This document shows, piece after piece, positions 12,883-13,806 of a stretch of 14,412 bases of DNA. The notes below the pieces were generated by a model. That model had not been told where the DNA came from. It did no database searches and was given only the letters and a program-made list of their open reading frames with translations. Position 1 is the first letter of the stretch. Every line of letters starts with the position of its first letter. The DNA is from a virus (Duplodnaviria > Heunggongvirae > Uroviricota > Caudoviricetes), in the IMG/VR virus record IMGVR_UViG_2690315808_000002; one strand, given 5' to 3'. The position numbers were made by a program, and so were the translations under genes.

Positions 12883-12905
12883 TCTCTCCATGTGTTAAAT
12901 ATTGA

Positions 12906-12933
12906 AACGGGCGTATAACACGCCCGTTGTTTT
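12906..12933 (+). terminator. Rho-independent terminator of icd
   Basis: Stem AACGGGCGT / ACGCCCGTT with ATAAC loop followed by GTTTT, 24 bp after the icd stop. Confidence 0.8.
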
Positions 12934-12984
12934 ATTTATGTGGATATTATTAATAGCATATCGAGCATATTTATATGAAGCCCA

Positions 12985-13308
12985 TTACTTGAGCCCATAT
13001 GGGCATATTTTTATAATGCAACTATTATGTAAACATTTATTTGTTATTTTGCTTTCTCCTGGAGGACACTCTTGACTGCTTTTGAGTAAACTCCATAAAT
13101 CCTTGTTGAATGGTGCGATGTGATAAATAGTAATAGGATATTCTTTATCCTTAAGGATAATACCAGACTTAACCGGTGTAAATATACTGCCAGGAGGGAG
13201 AAATATAGTAGATTGATACCAGATGATCATTTTCATATTACCCCATATGGCTGAAAAAGATATACCACATGTAGGTTGAATTACCGTGTCAATTACTATC
13301 CACTTCAT
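12985..13308 (-). CDS. iraM: IraM anti-adaptor protein, 107 aa
   Basis: Intact 107-aa ORF in AT-rich DNA; sequence ([24 protein letters not shown]...) recognised from memory as IraM/YcgW. Confidence 0.75.
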
Positions 13309-13748
13309 TTGTTATGTCTTATCCCACGGTATTTAATATGGTTCATTAGGATGTTTATTTCTTGATTTTGCATATGAGTATATTACCCCCCCCTCAAAAA
13401 AATAAATTAATTAAAATGATGGCTTATATAAAATAAAATTTAAAGCAAGGAATCTCAATGGATGTTAAACAAAATGAGATTTTGTGAAAGCAATAAATTA
13501 TTGACTTCGTTTTAGATTTGTTTAGCTATAATGTTATACATTCAAATGACTGAACATCCTGTAATTAAAACATAGCCTTTATGCTACTTTGTGCCAATTT
13601 GCTAAACATTATGGTTGCCTTTTTATATAACGATAATAATGAATATAAGCATGACATGAGAATAAGGTTTCAATTTTTGAGTTATATAGGAATGATTTAA
13701 CCTGTTCCTGGCTAAAATACATATAACCGGATGATGACTAAACCAAAA

Positions 13749-13806
13749 TACATGTGCGTTAAGTATTGAAACGGACGTGTGGCACGGCCGTTGTTTTTAT
13801 AAATAT
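13749..13806 (+). repeat. Second, degenerate copy of the icd 3'-flank/terminator sequence
   Basis: About 40 of 48 aligned positions identical to 12888-12940, including a terminator-like hairpin AACGGACGTG / CACGGCCGTT (13769-13791) and T-run; no + strand gene precedes it. Confidence 0.5.

Follow-up and report, generated by a model that had tools for sequence, protein, structure and literature searches.

Direct repeats of the icd terminator around iraM as probable scars of an old phage-type insertion beside prophage e14

Why should the sequence that ends icd, terminator hairpin included, occur on both sides of iraM in Escherichia coli K-12? The stretch of DNA analysed here (the window; 14,412 nucleotides, IMG/VR virus record IMGVR_UViG_2690315808_000002) covers the right-hand 14 kb of prophage e14 and, after it, chromosomal genes, as judged from its open reading frame (ORF) map and its match to strain MG1655. 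An earlier note, made from these letters alone, proposed that an element had once integrated at the icd 3' end bringing iraM, and had decayed before e14 arrived. This proposal is supported by genomes with a single-copy site, by a 6.3-kb sister island in the same slot, and by the phage-family affiliation of IraM. We estimate a probability of about 0.8 that the two repeats were left at the junctions when foreign DNA of phage origin inserted long ago at the 3' end and terminator of icd.

A published study (PMC4045071) describes iraM and iraL as patchily distributed and iraM as missing from strain CFT073; of iraM it says that it 'is found on the e14 prophage'. However, iraM lies beyond icdC, the icd 3' end displaced by e14, and thus outside the prophage, and it adjoins an intact icd in the e14-free genomes 52F4, Nico21(DE3) and isolate 648. 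Contrary to that study, iraM is not an e14 gene. When e14 and phages of the phage 21 type integrate into icd, the phage supplies a substitute icd 3' end (Hill et al. 1989, as cited in PMC6379469). The e14 duplication in icd is described in PMC6379469, in which neither iraM nor the repeats considered here are mentioned. An account of a repeat-bounded iraM islet was not found in the literature searched, which is no proof that none has been published.

The repeat and its two hairpins

A repeat search of the window returned a single family, a direct repeat of 43 nt (12891-12933 and 13755-13797) with 36 of 43 positions identical (84%) and a start-to-start distance of 864. Gapped local alignment extended the two copies to the limits given in Table 1, with 38 identities in 47 columns and one 2-nt gap. 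The score of this alignment was 53, compared with 19.8 ± 2.5 and a maximum of 29 in 500 shuffles. The repeat is real and non-random, in agreement with the earlier note, which had counted about 40 of 48 identical positions at a distance of some 860 bp.

Copy 1, on the icd side, is an intrinsic (Rho-independent) terminator. The terminator scan gave a stem of nine pairs (six of them G-C), a loop of 5 and the tail GTTTTATTTA, and the sequence folded at -18.4 kcal/mol on the plus strand (z = -4.3) and at -19.8 kcal/mol on the minus strand (z = -5.1). Read on the minus strand, this hairpin sits 51 nt past the iraM stop. Copy 2 of K-12 does not qualify as an intrinsic terminator, either by its stem or by its folding. 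One mid-stem pair is altered on both sides, from G-C to a non-pairing A/G, and the scan recovered just a 5-pair alternative stem. Folding gave -10.4 kcal/mol on the plus strand (z = -0.15; 80 of 200 shuffles folded as well) and -10.8 kcal/mol on the minus strand (z = -1.4). The hairpin had been described as preserved in copy 2 with compensating changes, and this description does not hold for the K-12 sequence. An Rfam scan of 12400-14412 produced only sub-threshold chance matches and no family.

Truly compensated stem changes do occur in a third homolog of the terminator, AACGGGAGCGTAACGCTCCCGTT, which belongs to the e14-borne icd end of MG1655 (left end of e14, outside the window; 2410-2490 in the locus record). 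It is identical to copy 1 at 33 of 43 positions and folds at -18.1 kcal/mol. Since it adds to copies 1 and 2, three homologous terminators are layered in K-12.

Other details of the first description need correction or qualification. The stop at 12882, taken as that of icd, is the stop of the displaced icdC remnant and not of functional icd: RefSeq labels icdC in MG1655 as incomplete isocitrate dehydrogenase, and its translation matches Icd residues 362-416 (tblastn). Copy 2 was said to have no gene to terminate, which is correct for the plus strand, where no gene lies upstream, but not for the minus strand, where the convergent ymgL-ycgX pair ends at copy 2. The view of iraM as the only gene between the copies, AT-rich and on the opposite strand, stands as far as sizeable genes go, but the small ORF ymgK is annotated there as well.

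The islet between the copies has a G+C content of 30%, against 47% for icdC, and holds no ORF beyond iraM and ymgK. Could the repeat be the target-site duplication of a transposon or insertion sequence (IS) that carried iraM? IS200C and other IS elements have been active at this spot, but a length of 43-66 nt far exceeds known target duplications and, to our knowledge, elements of the IS200/IS605 family make none at all. Terminal inverted repeats are missing from the islet (score 9 against 8.3 ± 1.7 in shuffles), and its ORF map shows no transposase. We regard this origin as highly improbable.

Table 1. Features of the window (coordinates in nucleotides from its first letter)
Feature	Position	Strand	Basis or remark
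lit	1-894		ORF map and MG1655 match
intE	985-2112	minus	ORF map and MG1655 match
mcrA	11651-12484		ORF map and MG1655 match
icdC, icd 3' end displaced by e14 to the right end of the prophage	12715-12882	plus	ORF 12718-12882
Repeat copy 1, intact icd intrinsic terminator	12888-12933	plus	Stem 12906-12928, then T-tract
Islet, unique part	12934-13754		821 nt, 30% G+C; missing from 1037 E. coli genomes
iraM, 107-aa RssB anti-adaptor, cargo gene of the islet	12985-13308	minus	ORF, RefSeq, PHROG 4407
ymgK, 14-aa ORF inside the islet, upstream of iraM	13565-13609	minus	RefSeq via MG1655 coordinates
Repeat copy 2, degraded terminator copy	13750-13797	plus	Stem remnant 13770-13792
Right flank of copy 2	13798-13840	plus	Abuts the single terminator in iraM-less genomes
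ymgL, annotated 36-aa ORF	13845-13955	minus	Found in genomes with and without iraM
ycgX (DUF1398), convergent neighbour, phage protein family	14008-14412	minus	Pfam PF07166, PHROG 413

Junction states in E. coli and its relatives

We surveyed 5426 complete E. coli genomes, all of which matched the icdC-to-ycgX interval. The K-12 arrangement, defined by coverage of at least 80% of this interval, was present in 3849 genomes, and a single-copy junction, defined by coverage of at least 80% of a 261-nt junction-spanning query, in 1037. The latter include TUM13066, Ecol_732 (ST131), CFT073 and the soil isolate SC434. The iraM coding sequence was found in 3914-3937 genomes and the copy-2 junction in 3688. 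In single-copy genomes the locus spans 830 nt, compared with 1695 in K-12, and the 865 bases by which they fall short amount to one repeat unit plus iraM. Alignments showed a single hybrid terminator in these genomes, the copy-1 hairpin followed by the K-12 right flank of copy 2, TATAAATATGTTAACCGTTATAAAATAACG. Comparison of the icd-ycgX interval with and without iraM thus identified the missing unit as exactly one repeat plus iraM, and there was no sign of iraM-less genomes keeping both copies, an arrangement which the earlier note had named as telling against its proposal.

Expressed as shares of the survey, the junction is empty in 19% of genomes, holds the 0.86-kb islet in 71% and holds the 6.3-kb island in 0.35%. 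Two marks of an integrated element are observed at this locus, direct repeats derived from the target and an unoccupied site with a single copy, while a site-specific recombinase gene in or next to the islet is missing. Most of the remaining genomes, for example O157:H7, carry a lambdoid prophage integrase gene right after a phage-borne icd end and terminator.

The prophages of O157:H7 TT12B (4128-4340 in the locus record), E. albertii and Escherichia sp. form another icd-targeting family, each with an icd end and terminator, then a P' arm that contains TTCCCCAAAAC repeats, and an integrase sharing 60-68% identity with IntE. Neither icdC, iraM nor ycgX was detected elsewhere in the O157:H7 genome.

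A degenerate pattern fitting both copies was scanned over one genome per species (185,579 genomes, 596 Gb). Matches lay directly after icd, native or phage-borne, in E. coli, Shigella, E. albertii, E. ruysiae, Escherichia sp. and Citrobacter; the others were two bins taken as contaminated and a few unrelated chance matches in other phyla. Two contigs under other names carried an E. coli-type icd end and terminator, and we suspect Escherichia contamination in both: an 'uncultured Sutterella' contig with a prophage integrase, and a contig of a 'Veillonella parvula' metagenome-assembled genome with the single-copy junction.

These results bear on the idea that the two terminators are independent and alike by convergence, or that copy 2 belongs to a dispersed family of the REP/BIME kind. 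Both copies do have a T run after a GC-rich stem, a feature of any terminator, but their identity also takes in positions outside the stem, among them TATTGAAACGG, a run of 11 nt, and, upstream of the stem, TTAA(A/G), and iraM-less genomes are short by exactly one spacing unit. Contaminated bins and chance matches aside, the motif turned up in the scan solely behind icd, in the genera Escherichia, Shigella and Citrobacter; membership of copy 2 in a widespread unrelated repeat family had been named in the earlier note as a refutation. An E. coli genome never has more than four such places, all at icd ends (the window has two), and not the many unlinked copies per genome of a dispersed family. 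Convergence or dispersal is the least credible of the explanations considered. The species scan and the lack of terminal inverted repeats led us to reject convergence, a dispersed repeat family and a target duplication by a transposon.

The copies differ in how well they are conserved. For the copy-1 hairpin, GGGCGTATAACACGCCC, the same sequence was recovered from E. coli lacking iraM, from E. albertii and three Citrobacter genomes and from the phage-borne O157:H7 copy; E. ruysiae is one base off. The K-12 form of copy 2 was seen in the species scan only in the K-12-like E. coli representative. A perfect copy-2 stem is retained in isolate 648, PCP06238 and S1bESBLb, the last of which has TGCGTTAAGTATTGAAACGGGCGTATGGCACGCCCGTTGTTTT, with four differences from K-12 copy 1. 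Elsewhere copy 2 has changed by lineage: K-12 has three extra substitutions, B and S. flexneri one stem substitution, and isolate 648 a G in the T-tract. K-12 and isolate 648 differ at 4 of 43 positions of copy 2 and by 5.5% over the whole islet, and these comparisons give no sign of purifying selection on copy 2. The intact stem of isolate 648 folds on the minus strand at -18.2 kcal/mol (z = -3.4), and a copy 2 of this type, directly after ymgL-ycgX, could terminate those genes.

Rearrangement of the hairpin itself was seen in S1bESBLb, whose copy-1 hairpin (1037-1079 in the locus record) reads GGGCGTGTTATACGCCC, the exact reverse complement of GGGCGTATAACACGCCC, with the loop flipped. At both copies of this strain (1037-1079 and 2615-2657 in the locus record) IS200C stands directly 3' of the T-tract, where CCCGTTGTTTT meets TGTGCACAGAAAACCCCC, and it does likewise at the single copy of the iraM-less strain H37. 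A decayed IS200 occupies the same spot after the icd terminator in Citrobacter sp. (reverse strand, about 8225-8260 in the locus record). The icd terminator is a recurrent IS200 target.

The 6.3-kb island and the kind of element

Homology places IraM in a phage protein family, with a match to PHROG 4407 at E = 4e-51. The protein database lists PF11183 for IraM, although hmmscan on a local Pfam-A gave no family at E <= 0.01. Lambdoid prophages encode homologs with 63-70% identity, which in Stx2 phages (65% identity) lie between stx2B and nanS-p and in further prophages, that of E. albertii among them, between Q and the holin gene; weaker homologs occur on plasmids. The DNA similarity of chromosomal iraM to the phage copies ends at the limits of the coding sequence, and the islet showed no DNA homology to phages or true plasmids outside it. 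Full-length 'plasmid' matches came from E. coli records of 92 kb to 4.9 Mb, which in our judgement are chromosomal sequences recorded as plasmids. The islet is foreign in composition and carries mobile-element cargo. The suggestion that iraM is horizontally acquired cargo gains support from the PHROG match, the prophage homologs and the low G+C content.

Relatives of IraM with about 73% identity pointed to a larger island in the same slot, present in 19 of the surveyed genomes (for example Z0117EC0005) and in strains labelled Escherichia sp. The order there is icd, terminator, e14-type P' arm, an ORF of 455 aa, a transposase pseudogene, trkG, iraM in divergent orientation, a gene resembling ymgB/ariR, another copy of the terminator and ycgX. 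The island is bracketed by the same terminator repeat, here of 66 nt, with copies at 5119 and 11424 of the reoriented locus record, and its right-hand copy opens with the final 13 nt of the icd coding sequence, ATCAAGAATATGT. The 38 nt that follow the left T-tract agree with the e14 P' arm at 36 positions (score 66; shuffle maximum 27), so that the proximal junction has the phage-borne terminator and a P' arm with TTATCAAAA repeats. The K-12 left junction shows no such match (score 15; shuffles 16.3). The 455-aa ORF has weak matches to PHROGs of unknown function. The trkG segment shares about 90% identity with another trkG region, one that adjoins phage lysis genes in some 1700 genomes; in K-12, trkG lies in prophage Rac.

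The island's ymgB/ariR-family gene lies directly upstream of divergent iraM (1119-1373, 642-902 and 10560-10820 in three locus records). It is a paralog, with about 39% protein identity, of ariR, which is found 4 kb away in the ycgZ-ymgABC cluster.

The K-12 islet and the right part of the island (iraM and upstream sequence) are 74-80% identical, compared with 93% in the flanks. The K-12 stretch from copy 1 to iraM is homologous to the 3' region of the island's iraM up to that gene's own terminator, and where the island has this terminator K-12 has the icd terminator. Since the homology of the K-12 left junction ends there, it fits a deletion from the copy 1 T-tract to iraM's terminator. The 6.3-kb version would then be the less decayed element.

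As to the kind of element, the 6.3-kb form has an e14-type attL and a right repeat with 13 nt of icd, and on these grounds the original insertion may have been an integrase-driven prophage of the icd-targeting kind. That it was an e14-family or lambdoid prophage with classical geometry, the left copy brought by the phage and the right one native, we hold to be about evenly balanced between true and false. A more doubtful alternative puts the attachment site inside the 43-66-nt block instead of at an e14-type crossover; the element's own look-alike terminator would then have become copy 2 and have remained as the ymgL-ycgX terminator. Homology of the K-12 type is indeed confined to the block, and that of the large island begins with the last 13 nt of icd; both junctions fall at one run, CCGTTGTTTT. 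The copy-1 hairpin is the same as in unoccupied sites and outgroups, and the private differences (loop ATGGC, T3C, A9G) are in copy 2. However, neither the species scan nor the phage records contained an element with such an attP, and the left end of the large island resembles a canonical e14-family attL. Identity of copy 1 to native copies is also weak evidence here, because phage-borne copies can nearly equal host copies (98.7% in O157:H7).

In an extended and less probable form of the same idea, the 43-66-nt block, which spans the final icd codons and the bidirectional terminator, would be the att site of an unrecognised family of integrative elements apart from e14 and phage 21. Elements of this family would bring a look-alike terminator and thereby leave each of the two convergent units, icd and ymgL-ycgX, with a terminator after insertion. 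In most E. coli copy 2 would then insulate the H-NS/PhoP-controlled iraM promoter from ycgX read-through, and its decay in K-12 would alter RpoS control. We think this unlikely.

Direction of change and history of the locus

Which junction state came first? In one Citrobacter sp. genome, which lacks iraM at this place, icd is followed by a related terminator, a decayed IS200 and a homolog of ycgX (71% identical). Among 5.8 billion proteins searched there were no IraM relatives between 74% and 88% identity, and the E. albertii homolog (63% identical) is prophage-borne. The right flank of copy 2 resembles the e14 P' arm (score 27; shuffles 19.3 ± 2.4, maximum 28) collinearly with the terminator, which suggests that terminator and flank were contiguous before the insertion. 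On these four grounds insertion is favoured as the derived state. The ymgL-ycgX side, with its P' arm-like flank and with ycgX in PHROG 413, may itself be a still older lambdoid relic; the ycgX product is 44% identical to that of an ORF near the right end of phage lambda.

Several candidate outgroups were set aside. The sequence after the terminator in Citrobacter braakii, Citrobacter sp. Cu233 and E. ruysiae is an e14-type P' arm; because their sites are occupied, these genomes are uninformative on the ancestral flank. The YcgX homologs of E. albertii (70%) and Escherichia sp. E10V10 (77%) are paralogs, located in a lambdoid prophage or near fliC, and not orthologs from the icd locus.

It is possible, though we consider it the less probable direction, that the islet is an ancient resident and that the single-copy state of CFT073, ST131 and other strains arose by secondary loss, through precise deletion between the repeats or through recombination of two IS200C copies followed by IS excision. 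This bears on the direction of change in single-copy genomes, not on the existence of the insertion. An iraM island sits at the same site in a lineage with flanks 93% identical to K-12 and in Escherichia sp. strains, so that the occupied state may be older than E. coli. Identical runs of 10-11 nt common to the repeats could support deletion, and IS200C is found at both S1bESBLb repeats and at the single copy of an iraM-less genome. However, icd and ycgX are adjacent without iraM in the Citrobacter genome, and islet and large island have diverged far more than their flanks. The single-copy alleles are also diverse, with TUM13066, Ecol_732 and SC434 differing at 4-5 of 43 positions, which argues against one recent deletion.

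Some findings weigh against an insertion at the icd terminator as we have described it. Precise deletion between the repeats would yield an identical empty structure, so the 1037 single-copy genomes are on their own no proof of a never-occupied site. No integrase gene is present in the K-12 islet or the 6.3-kb island, and a search of 50,697 phage records revealed no intact element whose arms match. The similarity of the copy-2 flank to the e14 P' arm is modest. Islet and island differ by 20-26% compared with 7% in the flanks, and may be separate acquisitions and not one decay lineage. The distal junction also has no duplicated 163-nt icd segment. Upstream of K-12 copy 2 no icd coding remnant was significant (score 10; shuffles 9.6 ± 1.3), and as a result e14-type geometry needs an extra deletion. 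Of the degenerate remnant that the earlier note had proposed to look for at this position, 13 nt are present in the sister island, and an alignment of 13711-13754 to the island's remnant, made by hand only, is suggestive.

With these points included, the insertion reading would run as follows. A foreign phage-derived element would have inserted into the extreme 3' end of icd and its terminator, leaving attL/attR-like repeats. Because the recombinase is absent, we can only infer the integrase step, and such an absence is expected for a decayed relic. Deletions would then have shrunk the element to the 864-bp islet with iraM, its regulatory region and ymgK, the K-12 form probably arising from an island of the 6.3-kb kind by the deletion between the copy 1 T-tract and iraM's own terminator. 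Subsequently e14 would have integrated 163-165 nt upstream, inside icd, moving icdC and copy 1 to its right end. Today copy 1 would terminate both icd and the convergent iraM, and copy 2, left at the ymgL-ycgX 3' end under no visible constraint, would be decaying in the K-12 and B lineages.

The locus shares features with several known systems. It uses the same gene end as e14 and phage 21, both of which leave a duplicated host segment at both prophage junctions, and the sister island begins with an e14-type P' arm. In contrast to these prophages, the repeat around iraM consists of the terminator and at most 13 nt of icd instead of a 163-nt coding segment, and the islet has no integrase, excisionase or structural gene and measures 0.86 kb, not 15 kb. 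Lambdoid morons between Q and the lysis genes, such as stx2AB with an adjoining IraM-like ORF, carry the 63-70% identical homologs in that slot, and chromosomal iraM is likewise AT-rich with its own promoter region; however, it has no surrounding phage genes, and its DNA similarity to them is limited to the coding sequence. The gene iraL, which encodes an IraM paralog on the potB island of CFT073 (PMC4045071), is also a horizontally acquired anti-adaptor gene that is patchy in E. coli and Shigella, but has another locus and other regulation. Att-flanked islets at the 3' ends of tRNA genes have the same imperfect target-derived direct repeats, unoccupied allele, low G+C content and accessory cargo, whereas here the target is the terminator of a protein gene and the recombinase is gone. 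The locus involves no new mechanism and is another example of a decayed integrative-element islet at a known phage hot spot.

For the biology of E. coli, this analysis fixes the boundaries and the probable origin of iraM, a well-studied regulator of RpoS stability, which would be the last remaining cargo of a phage-type insertion that reached the icd hot spot before e14. The K-12 locus then appears as a stack of insertions, with the e14-borne terminator, copy 1, copy 2 and possibly an older phage-like ymgL-ycgX flank. At least three natural junction states exist, which accounts for CFT073 and ST131-type strains without iraM, and these natural alleles are ready genotypes for testing what iraM contributes.

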